32,000 bases of DNA from Candidatus Omnitrophota bacterium (GCA_963662715.1 OY759724.1:3000001-3032000); one strand, 5' to 3'; counted from the stretch's first letter, positions 514-31,135 are shown. Made by a program: numbers and translations. The notes: generated by a model not told the origin, from the letters alone.

Positions 514-680
514 GGAATACAGAGATAGAAAAGATCAAAAAGGCATACAAAAAATGCAGGAGAGGTTCGGGGCGGCACGACAGAAGATTTCTTTATTGAC
601 GGTCTCCATAAGGATGACGTTGTGTTAAAGGATTTGTCTGGCGAGAGAATTATAGGTTGAGAACGGAGGGGAAGGACGCG

Positions 681-2105
681 ATGAAAAAGACCGTGAAAAA
701 ATCACCAGGACATTCAAAAGGATTATTTCGGCGCCGTTGGCGCCGGCCGCTGGCCGTGGCCGTGCATGACGGAACGGCATGGACTATGACGATTTTATCT
801 CTGTCGGGCGGACAGTGGCGTGCGGGTGCGCCGGTGGAATGCGATTCACGCAACGGGCGTCAGATCCCGAGAGTCCTTCTTGATGCCGCAGCGCAGTCCG
901 GTGTGCGTCGTCTGCGTCTGCTGTTGAGCGGTGATCCGCGGATTTTTTCGATCGAAGCGCATCATGAGCTTTTTCCGGAGGAATTGCAGTCCGCTTTGCG
1001 TTTTGAGGCCAAAGGGGAACTTGGCGCGGATGCCGAAGATATGCGGTTTGCCGCCGCACTGGTCTCACAATACGATATGGGCGCCGGGCGTCAGGATGTC
1101 CTGACAGCCGGGTTCGCCATTGAAAGTCTTGAGCAGTTTGCCGCTAACGCCCAGCGGGCCGGACTTGATTTTGAATCTGCCGGCGCTCTGGAATCCGCTA
1201 TTTTAAAATGGCATTCGTCACGCTCGCCGGAAAAGCGGCTGTTGTTCGTTCGAGAGAAAACGAGTTTTTATGTTGTTCCGGCCGATAATGCGCAGCCGTT
1301 TTGGGTGACAACCCTGCCGTTGGGTTTGGACGCTTTGCATGATCCTGTTGCCAGGGAGCGCGCGAAACGGGCGCATGAACGCCTAGCCGCGCACAAGACC
1401 TTACCTTTGTGTGTCGTCATCGCCGGAAATGGAAAGAAAGAGAAGTGTTTAGAAATAGAACCGCTGTTGGGCGGGGCCAGGGATATTGATATCATATCCT
1501 TGAAAGACATGCTATCCGAAGTCGTGTCTTGTGCCGCTTATGTACGGGAAAGCGGGCTTGATTCGCCTTGTGGGCTGATCGGCCTTCCTCCGGCTCCCCG
1601 CGATCCGCACCGGCACGGCACAGTGATCTTTTTTTTCATCCTTTTGATGACGTTGGGATGGATCGTCTTTCAGCGGCAGGCATATATTCAGAAAATCAAC
1701 CGGGCCCAACAGAGCCTGGAGAGATGGGAAGACCTTCAAACACAACGCCAAACAGCAAAAACTTCAGCCGGGAATTTGCGCGATCAGCTTGACCGTCAAC
1801 GTGCCGGTTTGCGTTTGCTGTCCAAACACCAGCCGCTTCCCCGCGGGATATTAACTATTCTTGACGCTGTCGCCCGTCATATGCCGGAATATTCACGGCT
1901 TGAATCGATCCGTCAGATAGAAGACGGTTTGGAAATCACAGGTATTACCCGTTGGCAGGAAGGGCTGTCTCAGTTGGATGAAGGGTTGCGGAAGGCTGCG
2001 GCGGCGGAAGGTTTGAGACGGGAATTCGGCGGACTGGAAACCATGGAAGATTCCGGCGTACAGCGTTTCCGTTTTATTGTGCGCGCCCCGGAGGTGTTGC
2101 CATGA
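681..2105 (+). CDS. GspL-like assembly-platform protein (cytoplasmic PilM-like domain, one TM segment, PilN-like coiled-coil periplasmic domain)
   Basis: ATG at 681 follows GGAGGGGAAGGA; the ORF track starts at TTG 657. About 300 aa of soluble N-terminal region precede a single hydrophobic segment (GTVIFFFILLMTLGWIVF). A Q/R-rich coiled coil and a C-terminal alpha-beta region follow. The stop overlaps the next start (ATGA at 2102-2105). Context is a pilB/pilC/secretin operon. Confidence 0.55.
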   Translation: MKKTVKKSPGHSKGLFRRRWRRPLAVAVHDGTAWTMTILSLSGGQWRAGAPVECDSRNGRQIPRVLLDAAAQSGVRRLRLLLSGDPRIFSIEAHHELFPEELQSALRFEAKGELGADAEDMRFAAALVSQYDMGAGRQDVLTAGFAIESLEQFAANAQRAGLDFESAGALESAILKWHSSRSPEKRLLFVREKTSFYVVPADNAQPFWVTTLPLGLDALHDPVARERAKRAHERLAAHKTLPLCVVIAGNGKKEKCLEIEPLLGGARDIDIISLKDMLSEVVSCAAYVRESGLDSPCGLIGLPPAPRDPHRHGTVIFFFILLMTLGWIVFQRQAYIQKINRAQQSLERWEDLQTQRQTAKTSAGNLRDQLDRQRAGLRLLSKHQPLPRGILTILDAVARHMPEYSRLESIRQIEDGLEITGITRWQEGLSQLDEGLRKAAAAEGLRREFGGLETMEDSGVQRFRFIVRAPEVLP

Positions 2106-4051
2106 AACGGGAATTACAGCGGGCTGTTCAAGGCTGGAAAAAAGAATTCGTGATGTTTTGGGGGCGTTTTAACGCCTTTCAACGCATTGTCATCGGCATT
2201 CTTTTGGCCATGGTTTTGGTGTACGCCGCGCGCGTAAAACTGCTGGATCCCATGCGCCGGGAGGTTGAAAAGGTTCATAAAACTTTGGAGGATGAAGGGG
2301 TGCCGGCTGTGATACCGACGCCTGAGCGGGATGATGAGATACAGCAGGACTTGCTGCGTATAGAGAATTTTGAGGAGAACATCAAAGAGGAAGCTGCTGA
2401 GAAGGGAAGGGCGGAAGCTCAAACATCTTATCGTTTAAACGCGGGGCCAGCGGATGCGCAGGCGGCTTTGATCGCCTTGGCCACCAAAAGCGGATTACGC
2501 GTACACGAAAACCGCTCTGTTGAGGTTGAGACACAAACGCGTGTGCCTCACGCGGCCTTTGCTTGTGAATTGCGGGGGGCCTTGTTTACATCTATTTTCC
2601 GGTTTCTTAACGCGTTTTCCTCCGAACCGTATTTATGGGAATTGGATCAGATTTCCCTGGAATTACTAGATCAAAAATCGACAGCTTCTGTTTCTGGGGT
2701 TTATCAACCCCCTGTGTTATCGCTGCGATTCCTTTTGCGGTTTTATATATATGGTAAAGAGACTACTGATGATCAGGAAGCTGATCAGGTTAAGGCCGAC
2801 CATATTGAAAATGTTTCTGCTGTTGATGAGCAAAATGAGCCATATATAAAAGAAACTGACGATGATCAGAAAATTGATCAATTTGAAGCTGACTATGTCG
2901 ATGGTGTCTCTGATGATGATAAAGAAGGTGAAGCCGTGCCGGACCGTACCGGTGAAACCTTTTACGTGTACCGTAAAAACAATTGGCTGGAAAATCAGTT
3001 TATCCCGTCAGGGTGGATGGGAGATATTCACAGCCTGTCATTCAATAACTGGTTTATTCCCGATCATTCCGTGGACGCGACGTATGTTGAGATAACATAC
3101 AACCCTGAAAGATTAAAGCAAGAAGGCTGGGCGGGTATTTACTGGCAGTCTTCTGAAAATAATTGGGGGGCCAGAAAATCGGGATATGATTTGCGGGGAT
3201 ACAATAAATTGATCTTTTCCGCCAAAGGCGCCAAGGGAGGGGAAGTTATTACCAAAGTCAAAGTCGGCGGAATAATAAAAGACAATATGACCGGAAAAAC
3301 GTTTGATTATCCTGATTCATTGGACACGGGCAAAGGGCCTATACGCCTCAGCGCCCGGTGGCAGGAATATTTTATCAATCTCGCTGGCAAAGACCTCTCC
3401 TATGTGAACGGCGGATTTGCGCTGATATTTAGCAAGGAACACACCGGGTCAACACAGACAATTCATATCGGTAATATCCGTTATGTTTACGATCCCGGCC
3501 TGACCGCGGAAGATGATTCGTTGAGTTTTCCGTTTCATGTTTATACAGATTACGGGGCTCTTGACAACCATTTTGTCCCCTCGGGATGGATGCCGGGTTC
3601 CTTGGTGAAAGATTTAAAGATGGATACCAATTGGATAGAGAATCCCTACAGGGGTGAGAGCTGTATAAAAATTGAATACAGAAACAATTCCGGAATCCGA
3701 TGGGCCGGCATTGCCTGGCAGGAGCCGGCGAATAACTGGGGAGCCGTGGCGGATGCCGGCTATAACCTGCGGGGAGCGAAAAAGCTCACTTTTTGGGCGA
3801 AAGGTGAACAGGGCGGAGAAATCATCAATGAATTTAAAGTGGGCGGATTAATAAACGGCGCTTATCCGGATTCGGGCAGCGCGAGCATCTTTCATATTCA
3901 GTTAACAGACCAATGGAAAAAATACGAAATCAACTTGCACGGCACTGATCTTTCGCACGTGATCGGCGGTTTTGGTTTTTCAACAAGCATAGATAATAAT
4001 GATCCTGACGGAGTCGTTTTTTATATTGATGAAATTAAATATGAGGATTAA
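2102..4051 (+). CDS. PilO/GspM-like membrane-anchored protein carrying an acidic repeat linker and two tandem beta-sandwich (carbohydrate-binding-like) modules
   Basis: An N-terminal TM segment (IVIGILLAMVLVYAA) is followed by a charged coiled coil, as in PilO/GspM. An acidic D/E/Q linker follows, then two homologous modules of roughly 165-180 aa. Shared module signature: F.VY......N.F.PSGWM ... WAGI.WQ...NNWG....GY.LRG..KL.F.AKG..GGE.I...KVGG ... W..Y.INL.G.DLS.V.GGF. Module 1 is about 2960-3500 and module 2 about 3527-4048. Confidence 0.55.
   Translation: MKRELQRAVQGWKKEFVMFWGRFNAFQRIVIGILLAMVLVYAARVKLLDPMRREVEKVHKTLEDEGVPAVIPTPERDDEIQQDLLRIENFEENIKEEAAEKGRAEAQTSYRLNAGPADAQAALIALATKSGLRVHENRSVEVETQTRVPHAAFACELRGALFTSIFRFLNAFSSEPYLWELDQISLELLDQKSTASVSGVYQPPVLSLRFLLRFYIYGKETTDDQEADQVKADHIENVSAVDEQNEPYIKETDDDQKIDQFEADYVDGVSDDDKEGEAVPDRTGETFYVYRKNNWLENQFIPSGWMGDIHSLSFNNWFIPDHSVDATYVEITYNPERLKQEGWAGIYWQSSENNWGARKSGYDLRGYNKLIFSAKGAKGGEVITKVKVGGIIKDNMTGKTFDYPDSLDTGKGPIRLSARWQEYFINLAGKDLSYVNGGFALIFSKEHTGSTQTIHIGNIRYVYDPGLTAEDDSLSFPFHVYTDYGALDNHFVPSGWMPGSLVKDLKMDTNWIENPYRGESCIKIEYRNNSGIRWAGIAWQEPANNWGAVADAGYNLRGAKKLTFWAKGEQGGEIINEFKVGGLINGAYPDSGSASIFHIQLTDQWKKYEINLHGTDLSHVIGGFGFSTSIDNNDPDGVVFYIDEIKYED
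2759..2911 (+). repeat. In-frame 60-nt acidic repeat, two copies with 93-nt period
   Basis: ETTDDQEADQVKADHIENVS (2759-2818) and ETDDDQKIDQFEADYVDGVS (2852-2911) align at both the nucleotide and peptide level. Confidence 0.7.
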
Positions 4052-4082
4052 TTATGCATATTTCAAATGAGGCAAAAAAATA

Positions 4083-5537
4083 ATGAGTAAGGACCGCACG
4101 ATTGACTTGTCTAAAGTGGTGATCTCGGATGAGGCGTTATCACGTCTACCCGCTCGGTTGGCACGCCGCTTCGGGATTTTACCAGTCGCATTGGATGGCG
4201 ACACCCTGACGGTCGTTCAAACGAATCCCGATGATCTCCTGGGTCCTATGCAGATTGAAGGGCAGCTGGGGTTAAGGATTCTTACGGTGCCTGCAACGCG
4301 CCCCACCGCAGTTGGACGCGCTATTGAGCGTTACTATAGCGGACCGACAGCGGACGCGACCTCAACGGGGCTGGATGTTCTCGAACATCTGGTCAACCGC
4401 GCCATTCAAATACACTGTTCCGATATTCATCTGGATCCGGAAGAAGGTGTCGGTCTTGTCCGTATGCGCGTGGACGGCATGATGCGTGTTATTAGCGAGT
4501 ATCCGTTGGATTTTTTGAGCAATCTTGTCGCCGCTGTTAAAGTCGCTGCCAAGCTTGATATTTCGGAAAGCCGTGCGCCTCAGGACGGACAGATGGAAAT
4601 CGAAAGCCTTGGGGAATCCGTGGTTATGCGTGTGGCTGTAATTCCGACGGTACATGGAGAGAAGGTCACGCTGCGTATCCTGGCGACCGCCGCGGTTTCT
4701 GAAGAGCTCGACCGGCTGGATTCGCTGGGTATGAACGAATCGCATTACAAGACATTTTGCTCCGCACTCGATCAGTCCCATGGAGTTATTCTTCTTTCTG
4801 GCCCCACGGGAAGCGGTAAGACGACCACGCTTTATGCCGCTCTGCGCCAGTTGCGCAAAAGCGGTAGCCGGCACATTATCAGCATAGAAAATCCCGTGGA
4901 AGTCCCTCTGCGGGGGGTCAATCAGCTTCAGATTGATGGGGAGCGAATCACTTTTGCCAAGGCGCTGCGCAGTGTTTTGCGGCATGACCCGGATGTGATC
5001 ATGATCGGAGAGATTCGTGATGTGGAAACGGCTGATATCGCGATCAAGAGTGCGCTGACCGGGCATATTGTCTTGGCGACACTGCATGCCAACAGTTCTG
5101 TATCAGTCATTACCCGTCTGCTTAATCTCGGGGTCAGCGCTGAAATGGTCGCGTCCACGTTGCGTTTAGTGATCGCTCAACGCCTGGTGCGCCGTCCGTG
5201 TCCGCATTGCGTGGACTGGGAACCGGTCGGGGAATCGCTTCGTGACCAATTCGGATGGGCTCAAGACGCTCCCTTGAAAGTTCCTCACGCGGTCGGATGT
5301 CCGCTGTGCGGCCAGCTCGGATACGCGGGACGCACGGGACTCTATGAAATGATTCCGGTGGACCGTATGTTGCGTGATTTGATCGTGACGGGGGCCTCTG
5401 AGGATATTATGGCCGATGCTGTTTTTAAACGCAAGGGTGCGATGACATTGATGAGCGATGGCGCAGCTAAGATCGCAGCCGGCCTGACGACGCCGGAAGA
5501 AGTGAGGCGTGTTACATTTCTTGGGGAAGGCTTCTGA
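4083..5537 (+). CDS. GspE/PilB-family secretion/pilus-extension ATPase
   Basis: Walker A GPTGSGKTTT, Asp box IISIENPVE, Walker B DPDVIMIGEIRD, His box TGHIVLATLHAN, and the tetracysteine motif CPHC...CPLC. There is an N-terminal T2SSE_N-like domain. The stop overlaps the next start (TGATG at 5535-5539). Confidence 0.9.
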   Translation: MSKDRTIDLSKVVISDEALSRLPARLARRFGILPVALDGDTLTVVQTNPDDLLGPMQIEGQLGLRILTVPATRPTAVGRAIERYYSGPTADATSTGLDVLEHLVNRAIQIHCSDIHLDPEEGVGLVRMRVDGMMRVISEYPLDFLSNLVAAVKVAAKLDISESRAPQDGQMEIESLGESVVMRVAVIPTVHGEKVTLRILATAAVSEELDRLDSLGMNESHYKTFCSALDQSHGVILLSGPTGSGKTTTLYAALRQLRKSGSRHIISIENPVEVPLRGVNQLQIDGERITFAKALRSVLRHDPDVIMIGEIRDVETADIAIKSALTGHIVLATLHANSSVSVITRLLNLGVSAEMVASTLRLVIAQRLVRRPCPHCVDWEPVGESLRDQFGWAQDAPLKVPHAVGCPLCGQLGYAGRTGLYEMIPVDRMLRDLIVTGASEDIMADAVFKRKGAMTLMSDGAAKIAAGLTTPEEVRRVTFLGEGF

Positions 5538-6781
5538 TGGCTAGATATGTTTATACTGCACATACTGCCGGTGGACGGCGGACAGGAACCCTTGAGGCCG
5601 ATTCGGAGAATGCGGCCCTGCAAAGACTGCGTGCGCAAAAGGTCACTGTTTTGGATCTGCGGATGGCATCTGCGGCGGGAGAAGATGACGCAAGGAATGA
5701 AGAGCTATTCAGATTGGATATTTTTCAGCGATGGCCGATCCGGGCACAAGACCTGGAGTTAATTCTGCGTCAGACCGGTTCGTTGCTGCATAGCGGTGTT
5801 CCGATCATTACCGCACTGACAGCCATTGCCCGTACATGTCCCGCGAGGGCGGCCCGTGCATTGAATCTTGTTTCGCAGGAGGTGCGCAAAGGTAAGCCAT
5901 TCAGTAAGGCGTTGGGCTCCTGCATGCCGGGTTTGGACCGCGTGACCCTGGGATTGATCAGTGTCGGTGAAGCCAACGGAACGCTTGATGAGATGTGCCG
6001 GTACTCCGCTAATTTGATGGAACGAGCCCGCAAATTGCGCGCTCAGATGATTGAGACATTTACTTATCCGGCCATTGTGATCCTTGGTGCCATGGGAGTC
6101 GGTTATTATATGGTTCGTCATGTTTTCCCGGTTGTCATGAAGTTTATTGAGGGAAGCGGACGGAAGGCGGCTGTTTTGCCGTTGCCGACACGCATGGTGA
6201 TAGCACTTGATGGTTTTTTATCGACTTATGGAATTTTTATCCTTTTAGCGCCGGTTGTATTGGCGATTGTTATCATGGCCTTGCGCAAATATCCGCGTTC
6301 GGGTGAAATCGTCGATGCCTTGGCGCTTAAAATTCCGTTATTAGGGGGGGCATTTTGTTTTCACGCAAACACAATGTGGTGCCGGACTCTGGGATCCATG
6401 CTGTCGGGTGGGTTAGATGTTCTGGCGGCAGTTGATTTGACGCAGGCAACCATGAACAACTGGGTGTATGCTCTTGAACTCGGATCTATAAAAGACACTA
6501 TCCGTAACGGCCGCAGCCTGGGGGACAGTATCGGCGCAAGCCGGCTTGCCCAATTAAACCCTATGGCACATACGATGATCAGTGTCAGCGAACAGGGCGG
6601 ACGGCTGGCGGAAAGTTTGATTGAAGCCGCGGAGTTTTCCCAGGATCAATTGAACAGGCGCGTTGAGTTGTTGAGCAGTATTGTCGAGCCGGCGATCTTG
6701 CTGATTGTCGGAGGTTTTGTCGGATTGGTTTATTTCGGATTTTTTATGGCCATTTATTCGGCCACGCGCTCGGCGTTGTAG
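5537..6781 (+). CDS. GspF/PilC-family inner-membrane platform protein
   Basis: 414 aa with two repeated cytoplasmic helical domains and three hydrophobic segments (PAIVILGAMGVGYYMV, FILLAPVVLAIVIMAL, PAILLIVGGFVGLVYFGFFMAIY). It sits immediately after the ATPase gene. Confidence 0.85.
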   Translation: MARYVYTAHTAGGRRTGTLEADSENAALQRLRAQKVTVLDLRMASAAGEDDARNEELFRLDIFQRWPIRAQDLELILRQTGSLLHSGVPIITALTAIARTCPARAARALNLVSQEVRKGKPFSKALGSCMPGLDRVTLGLISVGEANGTLDEMCRYSANLMERARKLRAQMIETFTYPAIVILGAMGVGYYMVRHVFPVVMKFIEGSGRKAAVLPLPTRMVIALDGFLSTYGIFILLAPVVLAIVIMALRKYPRSGEIVDALALKIPLLGGAFCFHANTMWCRTLGSMLSGGLDVLAAVDLTQATMNNWVYALELGSIKDTIRNGRSLGDSIGASRLAQLNPMAHTMISVSEQGGRLAESLIEAAEFSQDQLNRRVELLSSIVEPAILLIVGGFVGLVYFGFFMAIYSATRSAL

Positions 6782-6817
6782 TATTTGGAAATGATATTGA
6801 AAACAGGAGGAAAAGAG

Positions 6818-7258
6818 ATGACAGTCTTGAAGAACAAAGGCATTTTTATGATCGGCCTGTTTGCCACGGCATCGTTGTTTATATGTAATGGGTTTTCAAT
6901 GGCGCAGGAAGCAAAGACGGCTGATCCGTTAAATAACCCGTTTGAGATGCGAGGAGATGAGGGATTTGTCAACGCCGGACTTGTTAATCTTCCGGCGGGA
7001 ATACGCGTTCTGGGGATCCTGGCGCCGAAAGGACGCGATCCCGTCGGTGTGATCGAAATACCCGGAATGCCCAATGTCTATTTTGTTAAATCCGGCGATG
7101 TGATCCAGGTGGAATTTAACGAGCATGGGAATAAGAAAGTTGCGGGCGCAACGGTCGCTCCGCAGCGGCAGATTTATTTACTTGTGCAATCTGTCACGTC
7201 AGACGAAATTGTTATCGCGCCGCAAACCCGTCCGCAGGAGACGCGGATTTACCGTTAG
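6818..7258 (+). CDS. Small secreted protein, possibly a PilP/GspC-like secretin-docking component
   Basis: ATG at 6818 lies 7 nt after AGGAGG. Signal peptide MTVLKNKGIFMIGLFATASLFICNGFSMAQEA. The beta-rich C-terminus and the position directly upstream of the secretin gene suggest the role. The function is inferred from position only. Confidence 0.4.
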   Translation: MTVLKNKGIFMIGLFATASLFICNGFSMAQEAKTADPLNNPFEMRGDEGFVNAGLVNLPAGIRVLGILAPKGRDPVGVIEIPGMPNVYFVKSGDVIQVEFNEHGNKKVAGATVAPQRQIYLLVQSVTSDEIVIAPQTRPQETRIYR

Positions 7259-7348
7259 GGAAAAACAAACGGGGTATATCTCCTACGCATGGCGGGCGCA
7301 GCATATGTTCGACTAACTCATAAAACGTATTTTTTACAGGAGGTTATT

Positions 7349-9265
7349 ATGCGGTTAAAACAATATAAAAAAAATACCGGGAACGGTTTCCGGCATGGAG
7401 ATCTTTTTGACTCTGGCCGAACCCGCCGAAGGCCGGAGATAATCCGGTATGGGATGATTCTGCTGGTCATAGCGGCGGTATCGCGAGTTTTTATCCCGGC
7501 AAATTCCGTTTCCGCCCAGGCGCCATCGCCGGTCATTGAGTCGGTTTTTGCCAGGGGCATGACTTTGCGGGATTTCACTGAACTTTTGACGCGCGGATTT
7601 GGCGCTGAGTGGAAAGTGTTGGTCAGCGAGAAAGCCGGTGATCGGAAAATCCGTTTTTTTATGGCTGACGCGGGAGTTGAGGAAACCTTGCAGGCGCTGT
7701 GCACATCCTATGGGCTCTGGTACCGGCGTTCATCCGACAGCGGGATCATCCAAATCATGACACTGGAGGAATACCGCGAAAGCATTAATTTATACGCCGA
7801 TGAACTGGTTGAGGTGGTTCCGGTGCTTTATCCGTCGCCTGAAGAAATCGGCGATTCTCTGGCACGCCTGTTTCAGGACCGTGTGGTGTGGGATCCGCCG
7901 TCGGAAGATGTTGGGAACGATATCACGCGTATTGAGGATGCCCTTGACCGCATGGATACAATCGCTAATCGCGCGACACTGGTGGACACGGAAGGAGAAT
8001 CGTGGACCTCCGGAAGCTCGAGTACAGATCGATATGAAAGACAAAGCTATTCGAACTGGCGTACTGACCGATACGGAAGGCGGACATATGATGACCGCGA
8101 CCGCGGGGCAAGCGACACGCACAGCGTTGATGATGTTGTTTCCAGCCGCGAGCAGGAGATGGCCGTGCGACAGAAAGAGGTTTCCCCGCTGGAATTCTTT
8201 GAGAAGGAGAGGGCTTCCCGCCCCGGCCTGGTGTATGTTTCGGCGGCGCCGATGGCTAACGCGCTGGTCTTGCGTTCCAGTGACGCAAAATCGCTGAAGC
8301 TTGTCAAACGGGTCATTAATGAACTGGATAAACCGAAACCCCAGGTATTGCTTGAGGTCAAGGTGCTGGAAATAACGCTGTCAGATGAACAGGCACGCGG
8401 CGTGGACTGGCTGTTCCGAAAAGAACGCGGAGACGACATTATAAGCGGGGGGATGTCGAGAGGGATTACCTCTACACCGGGGGATCTGATCGAATCGTCC
8501 GACATAACCACACTGGTTATGCAGGGGGAAGGCCTTGATCCGATGGCTGCTGTGTTTAATGTCGTCAGTGATAATGTGCGCGCGCGTCTGCAGCTTTTGC
8601 AGGAGGAGAACCGTGTTAAGGCACTGGCAACCCCCACACTCCTGGTGTCGGACAATGAGGCTTCACGGATTTTTATCGGAAGTGAAGTCACTGTGCTCGA
8701 AAAAGTTGAGACAACTACCACGACAACCACCACCAGTACCACCACCGAGAAAGAGGGTAATACTTCTGTTACCGCTCCGCGCAAGCGTATCGGGACCACC
8801 TTGCTGATCACACCCAAGATCCATGCTGATCGCACGGTGACCATCCGTATTCTGCAGGAAACCACCGCACTTGGGGACGAACGCTCTGTTTCCTATGGCT
8901 CCTCTGACGAAGACGGAGGATTTCTTTCTCAGGATGTGGAAGAAACGTCCGTGACAACCACTGTTATGGCAAGCGATGGGCATACCATTGCTATTGGGGG
9001 ATTGATCCAAGAAGAGCATGGTTATCAGGAATCTGGCATTCCCGGGCTCATGCACATTCCTGTTTTAGGCAATCTTTTTAAAAAGACGGTCAAATCCAAG
9101 ACGCGCACAGAACTGCTCGTTTTGATACAGCCGCGTGTTTTACTGGCTCCGGGTGAGGCTGACAGCGCGTCACGCGCGTTTATTGAGAAAGCCAGCCGCC
9201 ACTCCGATATATTGCTACCCTCACCGCACGCTGAGGATGAAAGGCAGGAACCCAATGCCCCGTGA
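7349..9265 (+). CDS. Secretin (GspD/PilQ family outer-membrane channel)
   Basis: ATG at 7349 follows AGGAGG. Secretin-domain signatures: LLEVKVLEITLSDEQARGVDW, ALATPTLLVSDNEASRIFIGSEV, GIPGLMHIPVLGNLFKKTVKSKTRTELLVLIQPRVL. An N-terminal hydrophobic anchor/signal is present. Confidence 0.85.
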   Translation: MRLKQYKKNTGNGFRHGDLFDSGRTRRRPEIIRYGMILLVIAAVSRVFIPANSVSAQAPSPVIESVFARGMTLRDFTELLTRGFGAEWKVLVSEKAGDRKIRFFMADAGVEETLQALCTSYGLWYRRSSDSGIIQIMTLEEYRESINLYADELVEVVPVLYPSPEEIGDSLARLFQDRVVWDPPSEDVGNDITRIEDALDRMDTIANRATLVDTEGESWTSGSSSTDRYERQSYSNWRTDRYGRRTYDDRDRGASDTHSVDDVVSSREQEMAVRQKEVSPLEFFEKERASRPGLVYVSAAPMANALVLRSSDAKSLKLVKRVINELDKPKPQVLLEVKVLEITLSDEQARGVDWLFRKERGDDIISGGMSRGITSTPGDLIESSDITTLVMQGEGLDPMAAVFNVVSDNVRARLQLLQEENRVKALATPTLLVSDNEASRIFIGSEVTVLEKVETTTTTTTTSTTTEKEGNTSVTAPRKRIGTTLLITPKIHADRTVTIRILQETTALGDERSVSYGSSDEDGGFLSQDVEETSVTTTVMASDGHTIAIGGLIQEEHGYQESGIPGLMHIPVLGNLFKKTVKSKTRTELLVLIQPRVLLAPGEADSASRAFIEKASRHSDILLPSPHAEDERQEPNAP

Positions 9266-10340
9266 TCTTGATAATCTTTTGGATGAACTGGTGGCGTTGA
9301 ACGGCAGCGACCTGCACCTTGCCGTCGGCAATCCTCCCGTGTTCCGGGTGCATGGTTATCTTCAGAGGCTCAACGGACATGACGAACCATTAGGCCCGGA
9401 AATCATCGCTTCGATGGTCGCCGGGGTTGTCAGCGAAGACGCATTCGACCGTTTGCGTCACACCGGGGAACTTGACGCCGCTTTTGAAAGGCCCGACGGC
9501 ACCCGCCTGCGTATCAATGCTTACCGGCAGCAGGGTGAATTCGCTGTTGCTATTCGGCTTCTGCCCAATCGTTTTTTTAAACTGGAGGAGTTGGGGATTA
9601 ATGTCAATTTTCTGAAGAAGATCTGCGGACTGCCTTCGGGGCTGGTTCTTGTGACAGGAACAACCAGCAGCGGGAAATCCACGACCATTGCCAGCATTGT
9701 CAATGAAATCAATAAGACCCGGGCTTGTCATATCCACACTATTGAGGACCCGATCGAGTATCGGCACCGCAGTCTGAAATCTTTTGTGACTCAACGTGAA
9801 ATCGGGCGTGATACAGCCAATTTCTCCGAAGCCCTGCGCCGCAGTATGCGGCAGGACCCGGATGTGATCGTTGTCGGTGAAATGCGAGACTTGGAGACCA
9901 TGTCGGCAGCGTTTGCTTTAGCCGAGACCGGACATCTCACCTTTGCCACCCTGCACACCGCTGATGCCATTCAGACCATATCCCGTGTGATAAGCGCGTA
10001 TCCTGCTGATCATCAGGCGCAGATCCGTGTGCAAATGGCTTCAACCTTGCAGGTGGTCATCTGCCAAAAACTGATCCCGTGGCAAAACAAAACGGGGCGT
10101 TCGCTCGCCGCCGAGATTCTGTTCTCCACGCCCAGTGTGCGCGCGATGATCCGTGAGGAAAAGACTCATCAGATGAGGACAGCCATTCAAACCGGCGCTG
10201 AACACGGCATGCAGACTCTTAATCAATCGCTTCTCGCACTGCTCGCCGAGGGCCGGATCGACGAAGCGGCCGCGATGCATTACAGCGAGGATAAAGCCAA
10301 TATGAAAAATGAAATGGAGCATTTGAAGCATGAAAATTAA
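9255..10340 (+). CDS. pilT: PilT-type pilus retraction ATPase
   Basis: The start MPRDLDNLLDELVALNGSDLHL overlaps the secretin stop by 11 nt. Walker A GTTSSGKST, Asp box IHTIEDPIEY, Walker B DPDVIVVGEMRD, His box TGHLTFATLHT. At 361 aa it is a typical PilT size. The 9135 start in the ORF track adds a non-homologous extension. Confidence 0.9.
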   Translation: MPRDLDNLLDELVALNGSDLHLAVGNPPVFRVHGYLQRLNGHDEPLGPEIIASMVAGVVSEDAFDRLRHTGELDAAFERPDGTRLRINAYRQQGEFAVAIRLLPNRFFKLEELGINVNFLKKICGLPSGLVLVTGTTSSGKSTTIASIVNEINKTRACHIHTIEDPIEYRHRSLKSFVTQREIGRDTANFSEALRRSMRQDPDVIVVGEMRDLETMSAAFALAETGHLTFATLHTADAIQTISRVISAYPADHQAQIRVQMASTLQVVICQKLIPWQNKTGRSLAAEILFSTPSVRAMIREEKTHQMRTAIQTGAEHGMQTLNQSLLALLAEGRIDEAAAMHYSEDKANMKNEMEHLKHEN

Positions 10341-21873: not shown

Positions 21874-22665
21874 TTAAGCAAGGATTTTTTTGTGTAGATC
21901 GAGTTCTTTGTTAATCCATCTTTTGTAAAACTCTTCAGGCGTAGCGAAGAATAATGCCTGATGAGGGAAATCGGTGTTGTAATCGTTGATCCAACGCTTG
22001 AAGTCATCTTGAAGATCAAATGGGTTGTCCCATTCATTGATCCAAATGAAATCTTCTTTGATTCTGCGGATGACGCGTTCGGTGTCAGCATTGCCTTTGG
22101 GGTTGGACCAGGTTGAGAAGATCTGCTTGATGCCGGCCAGTGAACAATTAAGCCTGAAGCGCCCGCTGGTGGGCTGACAGCCATTGTCCGAGATCAGGTG
22201 CAGGTCATGATTCAGTGTGTCTTTGATGCCGTTTGGGAATCGGTTGTTGATGGCCATTTCCAGGGCATCCAGCCAGTCATCAGTCTTTGACTGGATGTTG
22301 AGGCTATAGCCGATAATTTCTTTGGTATACCAGTCTAGGACGATGGTCAGATAGAACCAGCCCCAGGTCGCCAGTTTGATTTTTGTCATATCGATACCCC
22401 AGAATTGATTGGGGTGAGAAGCTCGTGGTTTCCGGCGGAGGTTGCCACGCTTGGCCTTCAAGCGATCGTTGGGTTGAACCGTTAATTGATTTTCTTGCAT
22501 GAGGCGTTGGACACAATTTTTGCCAATTTTGTAATGTTTACGGTTGTTTAAATAGGCCCAGACTGAACGGTATCCCCAGAGGGGATGTTGCTTTTTAATT
22601 TGTCGGATTTTGACTAAATGTTTTTGGTCTTGTTCGATACGCTTTAGAGAACGGCGTCTTTTCAT
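21874..22665 (-). CDS. IS3-family transposase OrfB (DDE / rve integrase core)
   Basis: WGIDMTKIKL (first D), LISDNGCQPTS (second D) and NPKGNADTERVIRRIKEDF (E) in the typical order. It lies in the -1 frame relative to orfA. Confidence 0.85.
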   Translation of the reverse strand: MKRRRSLKRIEQDQKHLVKIRQIKKQHPLWGYRSVWAYLNNRKHYKIGKNCVQRLMQENQLTVQPNDRLKAKRGNLRRKPRASHPNQFWGIDMTKIKLATWGWFYLTIVLDWYTKEIIGYSLNIQSKTDDWLDALEMAINNRFPNGIKDTLNHDLHLISDNGCQPTSGRFRLNCSLAGIKQIFSTWSNPKGNADTERVIRRIKEDFIWINEWDNPFDLQDDFKRWINDYNTDFPHQALFFATPEEFYKRWINKELDLHKKILA

Positions 22666-22967
22666 AACTCGTACTCGTTTTTTTTTAGTTCAACGGTCAA
22701 GTCGCCGATGATGCGTTTGAGTTTGGCGTTTTCTTTTTCAAGACGTTGCTCTTTCTGGGACTGTTGTTTGATGTCAAAGGCCATATGGCATTCTTTGAGG
22801 AACTGGTCGCGCCATTTGTAATATTGGGTTTGGCCAATTTGGTATTTGTTACAAAGTTTACTGATGTCGATTTTCCCGCTGAGGCCTTCAAGCACGATTT
22901 GGGTCTTTTGTTGGCTGGTCCATTGGCGTTTTTTCATGGGAATTGGGCTCCTTTCCTTGGAACTCAA
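22662..22967 (-). CDS. IS3-family transposase OrfA (HTH plus leucine-zipper-like coil)
   Basis: RQWTSQQKTQIVLEGLSGKIDISKLCNKYQIGQTQYYKWRDQF is an IS3/IS911-type HTH. A C-terminal coiled coil ends at the slippery A run. ATG 22937 is an alternative start. Confidence 0.8.
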   Translation of the reverse strand: MSSKERSPIPMKKRQWTSQQKTQIVLEGLSGKIDISKLCNKYQIGQTQYYKWRDQFLKECHMAFDIKQQSQKEQRLEKENAKLKRIIGDLTVELKKNEYEL

Positions 22968-23036
22968 TTCTACACCATTTGTTTAAATTTGTTAACTAGG
23001 GTCACTATAGATGTTTCTAAAATGAAAGGAGTATTT

Positions 23037-23828
23037 ATGTTTGGTAAAAAACTGTATGTAATCCTTTTTGCGTTTATGAGTTTTGTTTTTACGCAAAAAT
23101 GCGTCGAAGCATCTGAACTCTTCGACAATGTTTTAAGTTCAGTAACAGAGGAGTTGAAAAAAGTAGAAGATGGAGCAGTGGGGATTGGAGTTATGTATGA
23201 AACTTCACCATATAAAGGTGCTGATGATGAAGTTATGCCCGTGCCAATGGTTATGGGAGAATACAAAAATTTCTTCATTGAAGGGACCGAATTTGGTTAC
23301 AAAATTATTAAGAATGACGATTGGGAGTTATCTGCAATCCTGGGCCCTCGTATGGATGGGTATGAAGCAAGCGATAGTACAGATTTAGCAGGAATGAAGG
23401 AACGCAAGAATTCCTTTGATGGTGGTGCAAAATTAGAATGGGATGCAAAGATTTTTGAATTAGAGGTGTCTGTTTTGGCTGATTTGGCAAACAACCATCA
23501 AGGACAGGAAGTTGAATTTGAACTTTCAAAAGAGTTTTTGGGCGGGTTTTTAACGCCTTATGTAGGCGTGACATGGCTCAGCAAAGATCTGGCAAATTAC
23601 TACTACGGAGTCAGGTCATCAGAAGCACGGTCAGGACGACCTGCTTACACCGCAGATAGCTCTTTTAATCCCGCTGCTGGGGTGCGCATAGTTTATCCAA
23701 TTAATGAAAAATGGGCGATTTTTAGTGATTTTGAATATGAAATATTGGATTCCAATATTAAAGATTCACCAATTGTCGATCAAGATGGATTGTTTTCATC
23801 AATGTTTGGAGTAGTTTACCAATTCTGA
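23037..23828 (+). CDS. MipA/OmpV-family outer-membrane protein
   Basis: ATG at 23037 lies 5 nt after AAAGGAG. Signal peptide MFGKKLYVILFAFMSFVFTQKCVEA. The family pattern is SPYKGADDEVMPVPMVMGEYKNFFIEG..FGYK ... GPRMDGYEASDS..LAGM.ERK.SFDGG, with a terminal aromatic residue (YQF). The 22746 start in the ORF track runs back into the IS element. Confidence 0.75.
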   Translation: MFGKKLYVILFAFMSFVFTQKCVEASELFDNVLSSVTEELKKVEDGAVGIGVMYETSPYKGADDEVMPVPMVMGEYKNFFIEGTEFGYKIIKNDDWELSAILGPRMDGYEASDSTDLAGMKERKNSFDGGAKLEWDAKIFELEVSVLADLANNHQGQEVEFELSKEFLGGFLTPYVGVTWLSKDLANYYYGVRSSEARSGRPAYTADSSFNPAAGVRIVYPINEKWAIFSDFEYEILDSNIKDSPIVDQDGLFSSMFGVVYQF

Positions 23829-23835
23829 TTACAAA

Positions 23836-26800
23836 ATGATGAAAACATTCTTTGAATTCTTTGCAAGAAGAACCCTCCTTGCTAATTTAATATCGATTAT
23901 GATTGTTCTTCTGGGGATAGGTTCTCTGCTCACGATTAAACGTGACAGCTATCCTCATGTTGATTTCGGAGAAGTTTTAATCGAAACATCCTACCCTGGA
24001 GCTTCACCCGAGGATGTTGAAATCAACATTACGAATAAGATCGAAAACGAGTTAAAAAGCGTTACGGGGATAAAAAATTTCACTTCCGTATCAATAGAAG
24101 GCGTCTCGCTCATTACTGTTATCATTGATCCGACAGTCCGGGACATGAAAAAAGTGAAAAATGATGTCCGGGATGCCGTCAACCGTATCAAAGATTGGCC
24201 CCGAGAGATTGAAAATTTTCCTTTTATTGAAGAGTCAAATTCTGCAACGTTTCCAATTATGGAAGTCGCCCTTTCAGGAGAGATGCCTTACAGGGATCTT
24301 TATCAAACAGCTAAACTACTAAAGAAAAAGCTGGAAAATCTTCCGGAAGTTTGCCGAATCAATGAATATGGATATCGAGCGAGAGAAATTCATATCGAAC
24401 TTGCCCCGGAAAAAATCAAAGATTATCAAATCCCAATAAATTGTATTAAGACAGCCATCCAAAAAAGAAACATCCGCTCCACGGCGGGAAATTCAGAATC
24501 ATTAACTGATAATAAAAATATCACCATTTCATCTCAATTCAGCAGCCCTTCTGAAGTTGGCGATGTAATCATTCGGAACTCATATGATGGCCCTCTTATC
24601 AGATTGCATGACCTTGCTGTTATTGAAGATGATTTTGAAAAAGCACAGACCCTCTCGCGTGTTAACGGGATATCTTCCATTTCCTTTGAAATAATAAAAG
24701 CTGAGTCTGCCGATATTTTAAGAGCCGTAGAATCTGTCAAAAAAGTCATCAAAGAATCAAAGGAGATTACGTCCGCAGGACTAAAGATATCTATTGCCAA
24801 TGATTCCTCTCATTATGTCAGAAATCGTCTTAATATTGTACAAAGAAACGCCGTCTTGGGCCTTATCTTTGTCATTTTACTACTGCGGATCTTTATGAAT
24901 GCAGAAACATCTTTTTGGATTGCCGCAGGAATTCCTATATCTTTGTTAGGGACGATTTATTTGATGCCTTTTTTTAATGTTTTCTTGGATAGTCTCTCCT
25001 TGAGCGCCATGATTATGGTAATCGGTATCATCGTCGATGATGCTATTATTATCAGTGAAAATATTTATAAACATAGGGAGCAGGGCAGTCCTCCGCTCAA
25101 GGCCACAATAAGCGGCATTCAGGAAATTTTTTGGCCTGTCCTCACAACCGTCCTGACAACCTTTTTCGCCTTTGTTCCCATGTTTTTTATGGAAGGTCTT
25201 TTTGGGAAATTTGTCACGGTTATTCCCTTGGTGATAACGTTGGCGTTATTCATATCCCTGATTGAATCATTTATAGCGCTTCCAGCGCATCTTCAACATG
25301 GATTGCGAAAACATAGGGGAGCACGACATTCAAAAAACAAATTACAATATTTAAAAGCAGTATATTTCTCGCGGATGAAACAAATATTGAAATTCCGGTA
25401 TATGGTTGTTTTTATTTTTATTATTGTCTTTGGAGTAACCCTACATTTCGGATTGACCCGCCTCAAGACGATACTTTTTCCGGATAAAATGGCAGAGGAG
25501 ATTTCAATCACGGCACAACTTCCCCAAGGATCCAGCCTGCAACACACATCTCAGAAATTCTCGGAGATTGAGCAAATTATAGCCCGCTTACCTAAAACCG
25601 AACTGAGTTCTTTTGTTACGCGAATCGGTGAAGACGAGTTTTCTGATATCAAAATTAAAAATCATGGATACATGATATTGTTTCTAACGCCTTTTAGCGA
25701 ACGGAAACGCAGCGCTCAGGAAATTGTTGAAGAGCTTCGAAAATCCACACGCCAATTGAAAGGCTTTGAAAATATTTCTTATTTCATAGAAACCGGCGGC
25801 CCTCCCGATGGAAAACCCGTTGAAATCTGCATCGTGGGAAGCAATGATACGATACGAAAAAAACTCGCCGATGATGTTGTTTCCTTTTTAAATACACTTA
25901 AAGGAGTCAAAGATATTACCCGTGACGATAAAATCGAACAAGGCCTGATTGAACTGGACATAGATTACCTTCAACTGGAAAGGTTCGGTTTAACTGTTGA
26001 AAATATTGCATCAAACGCCCGCATCGCCTATGAAGGAGAAGTTGTCACCAAAGTCAGATATGGGGATGAGGACGTTAATTTCAGGCTTTTGTTCAATAAA
26101 AACTCCGATGACAATCCTGATCGACTCGAAAACCTCCTGCTGGCAAATAACCAAAATAAACTTATTGAGTTAAACAAGGTCGCCAAATTTAAACACACAA
26201 AAGGTCAAAGCCTCTATCAGCATCATAACGGTCAAAGGGCAGTCAAAATCGAAGCAGACGTTTTTCAAGACATCATGACTCCTGATGACGTGATGGATTT
26301 AGTAGAGAATAAATTCAATCTTGACAGAGACTATCCCGGGACAAAATTTATAAAAGAAGGCGAGATCTTTGAAACAGAGCAATCTTTCAAAAGCCTGTTC
26401 CTGACCATGATCATCGCATTGACCGGGATTTATTTCCTTTTAATTGTCTTGTTCAATTCTTTAACACAGCCTCTTATTGTCATGGCAGCCATCCCTTTTG
26501 GTATTTTCGGTGTCATTCTTGCTTTTTTACTTCACAAAGAACCTTTAAGCTTTATCGCGTTGCTTGGCGCCATCGGGTTAACGGGTGTTGTTGTCAATGA
26601 TTCCCTCGTTCTTGTCAGCCATTTAAATCAAATCAAAAAAAGTTCACCTGCAGGACTTTCCATCATCGACATTGTTGCCCAAGGATCTTCCGACCGGTTA
26701 AGGGCAATCATTATGACAACAGTTACTACCGTAGGAGGACTTATTCCGCTTGCGTACGGATGGGGAGGATCCGACCCCTTTATGGCTCCCATGGCATTGT

Positions 26801-30712: not shown

Positions 30713-30724
30713 GGAGGTGTGCAT

Positions 30725-31135
30725 TTGAAAGTTGCTATTTCGACTGATAATAATTTCGTATCGGCTCATTTTGGTAGATGTCCGTCTTTTACGATCATTG
30801 ACTTAGAAGATGGAAAAGTTGTGAAACAAGAAACTATTGATAATCCCGGTCATGAGCCAGGTTTAATCCCAAAACTTCTCAACGATAAAGGAGTCCAGTG
30901 CATTATTGCCGGTGGTATGGGAATGCAAGCAACTGGCTTTTTTCAGAAATACGGCATCGAGACTGTCGTTGGTATACAAGGAATAATAAGTGACGTTGTC
31001 AAAAAATTGCAAGATGGAACATTGGAAGGCGCCGAAAGCCTTTGCAAACCAGGTGATGGAAAAGGCTATGGATTAGATAAAACAGTGTGTGATCACCCAC
31101 ATGAAGAGGGTTGTGAGCATGAAGGAGGTGAGTAA
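30725..31135 (+). CDS. NifB/NifX-like (dinitrogenase FeMo-cofactor-binding fold, PF02579-type) protein with a Cys/His-rich tail
   Basis: MKVAISTDNNFVSAHFGRCPSFTIIDLEDGK...IIAGGMG is the family signature. The C-terminal tail is CKPGDGKGYGLDKTVCDHPHEEGCEHEGGE. TTG 30725 lies 7 nt after AGGAGG and is preferred over GTG 30719. Confidence 0.75.
   Translation: MKVAISTDNNFVSAHFGRCPSFTIIDLEDGKVVKQETIDNPGHEPGLIPKLLNDKGVQCIIAGGMGMQATGFFQKYGIETVVGIQGIISDVVKKLQDGTLEGAESLCKPGDGKGYGLDKTVCDHPHEEGCEHEGGE

Follow-up and report, generated by a model that had tools for sequence, protein, structure and literature searches.

The pilus operon and the fusion gene

The window, a 32,000-nucleotide stretch of genomic DNA, carries an operon for a type IV pilus (T4P) or type II secretion system (T2SS)-like machine, all of it on the plus strand. 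At 657..2105 lies a gene for a 482-aa GspL-like inner-membrane platform protein of the PilM/PilN type, which matches Pfam PilN weakly over aa 401-475 (E 1.6e-3) and is 45% identical over 460 aa to the product of the gene in the same position in Kiritimatiella glycovorans. Its stop overlaps by 4 nt the start of the fusion gene (2102..4051; 649 aa, ATG start), in which a PilO/GspM-like part is joined through an acidic linker to two modules resembling carbohydrate-binding modules (CBMs). The initial annotation had placed a 649-aa gene in the PilO/GspM position, and the open reading frame is confirmed there, directly 3' of the PilN/GspL-type gene and ahead of GspE. The GspL-like protein is the presumed partner of its product.

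The end of the fusion gene and the start of the GspE/PilB-type assembly ATPase (4083..5537; Pfam T2SSE 4e-111 and MshEN; 73% identity to a K. glycovorans protein) are 31 nt apart. The GspF/PilC platform protein follows (5537..6781; Pfam T2SSF 2.4e-44, NCBIfam GspF 2e-66), and then a conserved 157-aa protein in the PilP/GspC position (6785..7258), which had no significant match in a Pfam search and is 53% identical to a 161-aa K. glycovorans protein in the same position. The operon closes with a secretin (7289..9265; Pfam Secretin 2.3e-39) and a PilT-type retraction ATPase (9135..10340; NCBIfam pilT_fam, 407 bits against a cut-off of 319), whose true start is probably nearer 9255. This order is identical in the loci L004, L005 and L087, the last from K. 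glycovorans. Within the window there are no glycan-related genes outside the pilus operon and no glycosidase near the fused modules.

The PilO/GspM-like N-terminal part

Residues 1-215 (2102..2746) are a PilO/GspM-type subunit, as judged from the AF2 model, Foldseek, a family profile and the K. glycovorans orthologue. This part comprises a basic N-terminus (aa 1-27, with 6 K/R and 2 D/E), a transmembrane helix at about aa 28-47, coiled-coil helices up to aa 107 and a ferredoxin-like core at aa 116-215. The transmembrane segment and coiled coil proposed at the outset are borne out by a Kyte-Doolittle peak at aa 29-47 (best 19-residue window, beginning at aa 29, mean 2.25) and by the AF2 model (pLDDT 94.6), which has helices at 25-64 and 78-107 and an alpha-beta-beta/alpha-beta-beta core at 116-215. 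The protein is accordingly predicted to be a bitopic inner-membrane protein with a cytoplasmic N-terminus and a periplasmic coiled coil.

The assignment to PilO/GspM holds in both profile and structure searches. The top PDB matches found by Foldseek are PilO structures (3jc8_Oa, E 5.3e-6; 2rjz, TMt 0.58-0.65; 5uvr, TMt 0.69, rmsd 2.9). Next in rank come the PilO-like Amuc_1100 and the periplasmic domains of GspL. A profile built from 68 subfamily sequences matches Myxococcus xanthus PilO (3jc8_Oa) with E 9e-6. Pfam recognizes PilO in 8 of these 68 members (best 2.1e-4), T2SSM_b in 3 (8.4e-16) and T2SSM in 2 (4.1e-8). The window protein itself falls below every Pfam PilO or T2SSM threshold, with no match at E<=1 to PF04350 (PilO), PF04612 or PF10741 (T2SSM).

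PilO and GspM form heterodimers with PilN and GspL and are required for pilus assembly. The window protein shares with them (3jc8 chain O, 2rjz and 5uvr for PilO) the place after a PilN/GspL-type gene, the predicted N-in bitopic topology, the coiled coil and the ferredoxin-like periplasmic core, but it is three times longer, owing to its C-terminal acidic tether and two beta-sandwich modules. An unfused 218-aa orthologue in K. glycovorans (CP010904, L087:7348-8004) is 48% identical across the whole PilO-like part and occupies the same operon position between genes that are 45-73% identical to those in the window; it ends, however, at the point where the linker of the window protein starts, and has no modules.

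The acidic linker

The linker (aa 216-284; 2747..2953) contains 24 D/E in 69 residues, with a net charge of -18 and a GC3 of 0.26. It is presumed to be disordered; its last 10 residues, the part of it included in the AF2 modeling, have low pLDDT. The duplicated acidic repeat first noticed at 2759-2818 and 2852-2911 is real and proved to be longer, a tandem duplication of a 31-aa (93-nt) unit at 2759..2944 (units 2759-2851 and 2852-2944). Its ungapped BLOSUM62 self-score is 79, whereas 2000 shuffles that preserved the composition gave 27 +/- 5.5 and never reached 79. The units are identical at 56 of 93 nt, too diverged for a DNA repeat finder to detect. Identity between the window protein and its relative P0002 is 46% in the linker, 71-81% in the folded parts and 71-75% in the modules, a pattern that points to purifying selection on the folded parts and fast evolution of the linker.

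The CBM-like modules

Module 1 (about aa 285-465; 2954..3496) and module 2 (about aa 475-649; 3524..4048) are 38% identical to each other (E 3e-33), in agreement with the initial description of two homologous W/G/N-rich modules. AF2 models the pair with pLDDT 91.5 and pTM 0.78, each module being a beta-jelly-roll sandwich of about 170-180 residues, the fold of CBM30 and CBM11. The best single-domain matches in Foldseek are CBM30 (TMt 0.63-0.68; Clostridium thermocellum Cel9D-Cel44A, 1wmx, 1wzx and 2c24), CBM8 (0.63) and CBM11 (0.59-0.60; 1v0a and 6r3m), which upholds the earlier reading of the modules as CBM-type beta-sandwiches. Two outcomes had been named at the outset as refuting that reading, a fold for the modules that does not bind carbohydrate and an N-terminal part unlike PilO/GspM in profile searches; the searches favored the reading on both counts. 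TM-scores of 0.6-0.68 at 13-16% identity indicate a common jelly-roll fold. As to the more specific guess of a CBM11/CIA30-like fold, CBM11 was recovered and CIA30 was absent from the top 50 fold matches.

At the level of sequence the similarity to CBM30 and CBM11 is sub-significant, and the Pfam and PDB profile searches do not place the window modules in either family as defined in CAZy or Pfam. The window protein matches no Pfam or NCBIfam model, and the modules have no Pfam match at E<=1; membership in a CBM family is therefore not established. A two-module profile searched against PDB sequences returned zero matches, and with a single-module profile a nanobody chain came first (E 0.16), ahead of the CBM30 structures 1wmx and 2c24 at a non-significant E of 0.4. 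The motifs L.F..KG..GGE and T..W..(Y/V).I.L are common to the single-module profile and CBM30, and Pfam CBM30 (PF21582) is weakly matched by 12 of 73 family members (best E 7.4e-5). The Pfam searches suggested in the initial annotation were empty for the window protein and positive for some of its relatives, with T2SSM_b, T2SSM and PilO on the N-terminal side and, weakly, CBM30 on the other. Given the absence of a Pfam, NCBIfam or two-module PDB match, the link to CBM30 rests on fold and on sub-threshold sequence signals.

In CBM30 and CBM11 an aromatic-lined surface cleft binds the beta-glucan chain. All 68 positions invariant in the 73-sequence family alignment, 14 Trp/Tyr among them, are retained in the fused copy, and the motifs quoted in the initial annotation (SGWM, WAGI.WQ..NNWG and KL.F.AKG..GGE) coincide with columns that are invariant or almost so. 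A 461-aa relative, P0030, retains module 2 alone (63% identity to module 2, 40% to module 1).

BtSGBP-B (7kwb), a beta(1,3)-glucan binder with tandem CBM-like domains (PMC7974029), ranks second overall among Foldseek matches to the two-module model (E 1.7e-8). The overall TM-score is low (0.23) because the domains are oriented differently. In Bacteroides, SGBP-B proteins are encoded with a GH158 in beta(1,3)-glucan utilization loci (PMC7974029). The modules resemble them in being duplicated CBM-like beta-sandwiches that are membrane-tethered through long flexible linkers. BtSGBP-B differs in being an outer-surface lipoprotein with an Ig-like spacer, in having CBM4 rather than CBM30 as its nearest CBM, and in showing no detectable sequence similarity to the modules (10-13% identity).

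Free-standing relatives in Omnitrophota

The two modules (aa 275-649) are 51-68% identical to a free-standing protein of about 385-400 aa (e.g. P0003, P0010 and P0106) that occurs in no fewer than 569 species genomes, almost all of them with an Omnitrophota label, and is conserved across that phylum at 44-79% identity (tblastn). This tandem-module family is unnamed and has no Pfam model. The window copy has both modules in the fixed order of the family along with its invariant columns; what it does not have are the signal peptide and the glycosidase-like flanking genes. Where it carries a PilO part, the free protein has a signal peptide or lipobox, and where it lies in a pilus operon, the free gene lies between GH158-like genes near a sugar ABC importer.

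The free gene sits downstream of that importer, and in 75 of 79 loci it has a TPR and glycoside hydrolase (GH)-like gene upstream and a GH-like gene downstream; a solute-binding protein and two permeases are also present in 53-56 of the 79. Among the proteins seen, the modules were never fused to an enzyme, unlike CBM30 and CBM11. The likeness of the flanking genes to GH158, a family of clan GH-A, is partial and moderate: their products match the GH158 structures 9oro (7.9e-12) and 6pal (5.3e-6), as well as the Pfam models GH2_C, GH72 and Glyco_hydro_cc. Members of GH158 itself act as beta(1,3)-glucanases (PMC7157763, PMC13195107). Judging by these neighbors and by the fold, the free Omnitrophota protein most plausibly uses its tandem modules to bind a glycan substrate of the beta-glucan type, like SGBP-B.

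It could instead be argued that the modules are not lectins and that these beta-sandwiches serve as spacers or bind other proteins (the secretin, the 157-aa protein, pilins or a secreted substrate, for instance). The linkage to glycosidases in Omnitrophota would then reflect a different, non-binding role. The jelly-roll also matches non-lectins in the Foldseek search (reelin repeats, meprin MAM domains and Cry toxin domains), the window protein lacks significant CBM family membership by sequence, and the unusual phylum-wide conservation would fit a protein with fixed partners better than a typical CBM. We nevertheless consider this unlikely, if worth keeping in mind, since three independent weak signals converge on CBM30, the tandem CBM-like layout with GH158-like neighbors mirrors the SGBP-B and 1,3GUL arrangement of Bacteroides, and many Trp/Tyr are invariant.

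Distribution and origin of the fusion

The fusion is carried by four assemblies only, that of the window and three others. The fused frame of L005 is 648 aa long and 73% identical, that of L088 is 71% identical and broken off at a contig end, and that of L004 is 461 aa long with one module. A mis-assembly, or a frameshift joining the PilO gene to an unrelated downstream gene, could explain why the GC content of the modules (0.45-0.46) is unlike that of the neighboring pilus genes (0.52-0.55). Such an origin is extremely unlikely, because a continuous frame recurs at this place in the operon in three further, independent assemblies, one of them with the one-module variant; in addition, a 3.36-Mb contig has the protein on record, and its folded parts are under purifying selection. 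The architecture is as unusual as initially supposed: when the PilO-like subfamily is clustered, only 2 of its 77 representatives are long, and the other full-length members have 191-303 aa.

In a neighbor-joining tree (midpoint-rooted, without support values) the fused clade is nested within the module family as sister to P0003-P0007, and synteny on the P0003 and P0004 contigs is of the Omnitrophota type. As the fused copies are nested in the free family, transfer followed by fusion is likely. The GC content of the closest Omnitrophota genes (0.45) resembles that of the modules, although this is a weak argument for transfer because the remainder of the window has a still lower GC content. The GspE of the window is closest to that of Kiritimatiella (73%), and Omnitrophota are absent among the named proteins in its top 120 matches, most of which are nameless. 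From these comparisons the host appears to be Kiritimatiellota-like, an uncultured relative of Kiritimatiella, and the modules most likely reached its PilO gene by horizontal transfer from Omnitrophota. Both points go beyond the initial annotation: the modules are likely a captured copy of a phylum-wide Omnitrophota protein, residing in a Kiritimatiellota-like host.

Proposed function

We propose, with a probability of roughly 0.6, that the fusion protein is a PilO/GspM-type alignment subunit whose Omnitrophota-derived CBM-like modules hold a beta-glucan-type glycan near the pilus machine in the periplasm. In the inner membrane it would be the alignment subunit of a machine that resembles a type IV pilus and has a PilT retraction ATPase. 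In a small clade, a PilO protein of about 215 aa would have acquired tandem CBM30/CBM11-like modules at its periplasmic C-terminus, linked to it by a strongly acidic, presumably disordered tether of about 70 residues. With an N-in/C-out topology both modules would be periplasmic, attached by a long tether to the base of the machine, and could there hold glycan close to it. The ligand would more likely be a beta-glucan-type poly- or oligosaccharide than peptidoglycan.

The initial annotation had also considered tethering to peptidoglycan. On such a reading the modules would bind the cell's own peptidoglycan, or some other immobile glycan of the envelope, and would thereby hold the inner-membrane platform in place or in line beneath the secretin. 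Elements of the AMIN, LysM and GspA/GspB type anchor other pilus and secretion machines to the wall, and accessory periplasmic binding elements are found on machine components as the AMIN domains of PilQ and in the LysM-bearing TsaP and FimV. We know of no such element, whether in GspB/OutB, PilQ or TsaP/FimV, that is located on PilO/GspM; these elements also have other folds, and their ligand is peptidoglycan. GspB/OutB is reported to link the secretin to both the inner membrane and peptidoglycan, which makes it a precedent for a wall-anchoring accessory on a T2SS/T4P part; it is an inner-membrane-anchored periplasmic element that has a linker and binds through its C-terminal region (PMC9239104). 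The modules of the window protein are likewise predicted to be periplasmic, and their tether of about 70 residues could reach the wall. Against this, searches of Pfam and NCBIfam gave zero matches to known peptidoglycan-binding families, the closest folds are CBMs of the beta-glucan/xylan type, and close relatives, K. glycovorans among them, have the same machine without the modules. The free relatives, moreover, sit between GH158-like genes beside a sugar importer, and not among wall-remodelling genes. As the evidence stands, a ligand of the beta-glucan type is more probable than peptidoglycan, and we regard a role as wall anchor as unlikely.

PilO-type proteins adjoin the site of pilin entry, and pilin glycosylation is common. 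The modules, which would be tethered at exactly that site, might recognize the glycan of glycosylated pilins or pseudopilins that are pooled in the inner membrane, and so gather these subunits at the assembly platform. This seems very improbable, as genes for glycosyltransferases or oligosaccharyltransferases are absent from the operon in the window, L005, L004 and L087, and the free homologues are tied to glycosidases and sugar import, not to pili.

A more ambitious form of the beta-glucan reading is a periplasmic ratchet, in which the pilus would bind an extracellular beta-glucan-type polysaccharide, PilT-driven retraction would pull the chain through the secretin, and the modules would capture it and block back-sliding. 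ComEA plays the same ratchet role for DNA in natural competence. We offer this as a speculative and quite improbable extension. The combination of a small inner-membrane T4P/T2SS part with a flexible acidic tether and two CBM-like domains is in any case a rare layout, and if the ratchet were true, the machine would take up polysaccharide by pilus action, in a phylum whose members are specialized in degrading glycans.

Genomic context of the fusion gene

The fusion gene (positions 2102-4051, plus strand) has an ATG start, encodes 649 amino acids, and forms one plus-strand operon with its neighbors. Its start overlaps the stop of the preceding gene (657-2105, plus strand), which encodes a GspL-like protein of 482 aa, and a GspE/PilB ATPase gene (4083-5537, plus strand) begins 31 nt 3' of it. 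These are followed, on the same strand, by genes for GspF/PilC (5537-6781), a conserved 157-aa protein with no significant Pfam match (6785-7258), a secretin (7289-9265), and a PilT-family ATPase (ending at 10340; score 407 bits, cut-off 319). Positions 1-513 hold the C-terminus of a protein of approximately 407 aa, which comes after pseudopilin-like genes in a related contig.

The GspL-like protein shows a weak PilN match in its periplasmic, C-terminal end, and Pfam recognizes nothing across its cytoplasmic part of approximately 320 aa, which suggests that the PilM/GspL-type domain has diverged in this lineage. The 157-aa protein is 53% identical to a 161-aa protein of Kiritimatiella glycovorans encoded in the same position, between GspF and the secretin, and may represent an undescribed family of PilP/GspC-type connectors.

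At about position 10300 the GC content drops sharply: it is 0.52-0.56 in the pilus operon (657-10340) and 0.34-0.41 in most of the remainder of the window, and one of these two blocks may have a foreign origin. In this remainder, an IS element (21874-22967, minus strand) with a 263-aa rve-family integrase (HTH_21 and rve domains) and a small overlapping upstream ORF sits between a two-component system and an RND locus. AcrB-type RND transporters and TolC-like outer membrane proteins are normally separate proteins; here one 1520-aa ORF (23836-28398, plus strand), preceded by a MipA-domain gene (22746-23828), encodes a complete AcrB-type transporter (Pfam ACR_tran, aa 5-1013, E 1.4e-172) with a C-terminal TolC-like OEP domain. 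Two tandem small genes at 30719-31503 (plus strand), each with a dinitrogenase FeMo-cofactor-binding-like domain (Nitro_FeMo-Co), come after a Fur-family regulator and a DUF5320 gene.

The PilO/GspM-like N-terminal part

The fusion protein itself reaches no curated family threshold: its 649 residues matched nothing in Pfam or NCBIfam, even at E<=1, and a word-indexed search for homologues of the first 220 aa returned one protein only. Finding the family required an exhaustive HMM search, in which a four-sequence profile of the N-terminal part was compared with 1.84 billion representative proteins and 77 members were recovered. Against PDB sequences the four-sequence profile gave a chance hit only. 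The profile of a 68-sequence alignment of the family matches Myxococcus xanthus PilO (3jc8 chain O, E 9e-6, profile positions 76-212), and aligned members match Pfam T2SSM_b (best E 8.4e-16), T2SSM (4.1e-8), and, in eight cases, PilO (best 2.1e-4).

The AF2 model of the N-terminal 215 residues built on this alignment (mean pLDDT 94.6) consists of an N-terminal helix, a long helix that contains the sole hydrophobic segment (aa 29-47), a further coiled-coil helix, and, at aa 116-215, an alpha-beta-beta/alpha-beta-beta core. In a Foldseek search of the PDB, PilO structures came out on top, namely 3jc8_Oa (E 5.3e-6), 2rjz, and 5uvr (TMt 0.69, rmsd 2.9 A), followed by the PilO-like Amuc_1100 and periplasmic domains of GspL proteins. 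The initial annotation had called this part of the protein PilO/GspM-like, and position, predicted topology, profile and fold all back that call. By fold and context the protein belongs to the PilO/GspM class, and it would work like PilO/GspM.

PilO/GspM proteins are, to our knowledge, generally seen as small structural components that carry no accessory domains. Literature searches on PilO with carbohydrate-binding modules or domain fusions, in which retrieval for "PilO" was swamped by unrelated words, found no such architecture described, nor did searches on pili in Omnitrophota and Kiritimatiellota, and no description of lectin-like modules on PilO/GspM was found. Long members are rare in the PilO-like family: its 77 representatives include just two, P0002 at 648 aa, whose cluster contains the window protein, and P0030 at 461 aa. 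The other full-length members span 191-303 aa.

The acidic linker

Residues 216-284 connect the PilO/GspM-like part to the C-terminal modules and include 24 Asp/Glu among 69 residues, with a net charge of -18. The acidic repeat reported earlier is real, and consists of a 31-aa unit in tandem (2759-2851 and 2852-2944) with a self-alignment score of 79; shuffled linkers score 27 +/- 5.5, and none of 2000 shuffles reached 79. Because only 56 of 93 bases are identical between the two units, a DNA repeat finder detected nothing within the gene, and the repeat is visible at the protein level only. Between the window protein and P0002 the linker is 46% identical, whereas the PilO part is 81% and the modules 71% and 75% identical. 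The folded parts are therefore maintained while the tether evolves freely, a pattern of sequence change that fits a flexible spacer.

The two C-terminal modules

That the protein ends in two homologous modules, as first proposed, is borne out by their mutual alignment (38% identity, E 3e-33). The AF2 model of aa 275-649, built on 73 sequences, has a mean pLDDT of 91.5 and a pTM of 0.78 and shows two all-beta domains. Among Foldseek matches that cover a whole single-domain target, the best are CBM30 (1wzx, 1wmx, 2c24; TMt 0.59-0.68, most chains 0.63-0.68), CBM8 (7t7y; 0.63) and CBM11 (1v0a, 6r3m; 0.59-0.60), the last being the family guessed in the initial annotation. Second overall in this search was BtSGBP-B (7kwb, E 1.7e-8), a surface glycan-binding protein that a Bacteroides beta(1,3)-glucan locus encodes and in which long linkers carry a duplicated pair of CBM-like domains (PMC7974029); the fusion protein resembles SGBP-B in layout only.

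Sequence comparisons lean in the same direction, but weakly. A two-module profile found no match among PDB sequences at E<=10. With a single-module profile, CBM30 chains rank second and third (E 0.4) behind a nanobody chain (E 0.16), and the motifs L.F..KG..GGE and T..W..(Y/V).I.L are common to this profile and CBM30. Pfam CBM30 is matched, weakly, by 12 of 73 relatives (best E 7.4e-5). The modules would work like CBM30 and CBM11, but they are not assignable to either family because their sequences fall short of what membership calls for. The fused copy retains all 68 invariant family positions, including 14 Trp/Tyr; examples of the invariant Trp/Tyr are the W of SGWM and the W/Y of GWAGIYWQ and NNWG.

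Free-standing relatives in Omnitrophota

Searching with the full-length protein yielded over 100 matches, about 370-434 aa long, that align to just the C-terminal 56% of the query, with identities of 51-68%; most of those carrying a name are named Candidatus Omnitrophota. They consist of a signal peptide or lipobox followed by two modules in the same order as in the fusion, and the family has no Pfam model of its own. With one genome counted per species, at least 569 genomes contain a relative of this tandem-module gene, and almost all of them bear an Omnitrophota label.

The best 79 of these loci share a common synteny, and are labelled Omnitrophota or, mostly, "uncultured Planctomycetia/Planctomycetales"; a few are labelled only "bacterium", and one is an archaeal MAG. 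The cassette (L001-L003 and L006-L084, for example L001:4497-12512) comprises a solute-binding protein, two ABC permeases, a TPR+GH158-like protein, the tandem CBM-like protein, and a second GH158-like protein. In 75 of the 79 loci the tandem-module gene is flanked by genes for a TPR+glycosidase-like protein of approximately 750 aa and a glycosidase-like protein of approximately 420 aa, and in 53-56 the solute-binding protein and both permeases lie just upstream; most exceptions are contig ends. Both glycosidase-like proteins have Pfam matches (GH2_C, GH72, Glyco_hydro_cc), and their best PDB matches are GH158 enzymes (9oro, E 7.9e-12 and 5.3e-6; 6pal). GH158 enzymes are beta(1,3)-glucanases (PMC7157763, PMC13195107).

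Many of the MAGs labelled "uncultured Planctomycetia" show the Omnitrophota synteny of the cassette. In the MAG labelled "Methanosarcinales archaeon", the contig with the cassette (L045, JAIWAR010000050.1) has the full bacterial synteny, with Band7, PurU, solute-binding protein, permeases, GH, tandem module and GH, and is probably mis-binned.

Host affinity and origin of the fusion

The GspE protein of the window shares 73% identity with that of K. glycovorans and 50-62% with proteins from Planctomycetota and Lentisphaerota; its best 120 matches are mostly unnamed, and the named ones include no Omnitrophota. The K. glycovorans chromosome (CP010904) has the same operon, in which the GspL-like and 157-aa proteins have counterparts of 45% and 53% identity. 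In place of the fusion stands a 218-aa protein that is 48% identical end to end to aa 1-218 of the window protein and stops where the linker begins. An Omnitrophota host, assumed since all homologues of the modules come from that phylum, was rejected on the basis of the GspE search and this operon comparison.

The fusion is confined to a small uncultured clade. It was found, with its place in the operon unchanged, in four independent assemblies: the window; L005 (JGI 3300005077; 73% identity, GspE 95%); L088 (SRR32456884), which the end of its contig truncates (71% identity across 382 aa, GspE 86%); and L004 (SRR32456876), with a single module (GspE 81%). The L004 module is the counterpart of module 2, to which it is 63% identical, versus 40% to module 1. 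A relative without the extension, P0121 (225 aa), is 52% identical. P0121, L004 and the two-module copies therefore form a natural series with zero, one and two modules. The L004 protein (P0030, L004:1735-3120) keeps only module 2 and has a linker of another kind, rich in Lys/Glu/Ala.

In a neighbor-joining tree computed without support values, the fused copies form one clade nested within the free-standing family, sister to the free-standing homologues P0003-P0007. The P0003 and P0004 contigs show a typical Omnitrophota neighborhood (GH-like, Memo, DUF1844, DHquinase, peptidase M24, EF-P and BCCP genes), with a TonB-like gene in one of them. The modules were probably transferred between phyla and then fused to a component of the machine. 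In the simplest history, the mature part of an Omnitrophota gene would have been transferred into a Kiritimatiellota-like host and joined through a linker to the 3' end of its PilO gene, and module 1 would later have been lost in one lineage. The GC content of the modules (0.45-0.46) is close to that of the nearest Omnitrophota genes (0.45) and below that of the adjoining pilus genes (0.52-0.55); it is weak evidence for transfer, because the window past 10.3 kb is lower still. L004, the two-module L088 and a close free-standing Omnitrophota homologue (L086) were sequenced in one study (adjacent SRR numbers), and putative donor and recipient lineages therefore both occur among its samples.

Possible function of the fusion

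From the architecture, homologies, predicted folds, distribution and conserved gene neighborhoods we infer how the fusion might act. An N-in/C-out topology would place the linker and modules in the periplasm, where the modules would bind a glycan, most likely of the beta-glucan type. Two observations lead to this proposal: the modules are predicted to fold like CBM30, CBM11 and SGBP-B, and the free form is encoded alongside GH158-like genes and a sugar importer. Fold alone does not prove lectin function, since Foldseek searches with the modules also return MAM domains, reelin repeats and Cry toxin domains. A non-lectin, protein-binding role is possible, and we rate it as unlikely. If the modules do bind glycan, the leash to PilO would raise the local concentration of the ligand around the pilus base.

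AMIN and LysM domains serve as accessory wall-binding elements on other parts of pilus and secretion machines. GspB/OutB is also such an element (PMC9239104). Anchoring of the machine to peptidoglycan by the modules, as the initial annotation suggested, is possible but in our estimate unlikely, and nothing points specifically to peptidoglycan. Glycan binding by the modules could also, by analogy with ComEA, act as a periplasmic ratchet for pilus-driven polysaccharide uptake. This idea is attractive in a phylum of glycan specialists and for a machine equipped with PilT, and we give it very little weight.

If the modules are lectin-like, the inner membrane platform itself can gain a ligand-binding function, and the fusion offers a compact case for how pilus and secretion machines couple to envelope or substrate glycans. 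The modules also define an unannotated domain family, which may matter more than the fusion itself, and the conserved cassette points to processing of a beta-glucan-type glycan as a core trait of the poorly understood and largely uncultured Omnitrophota.
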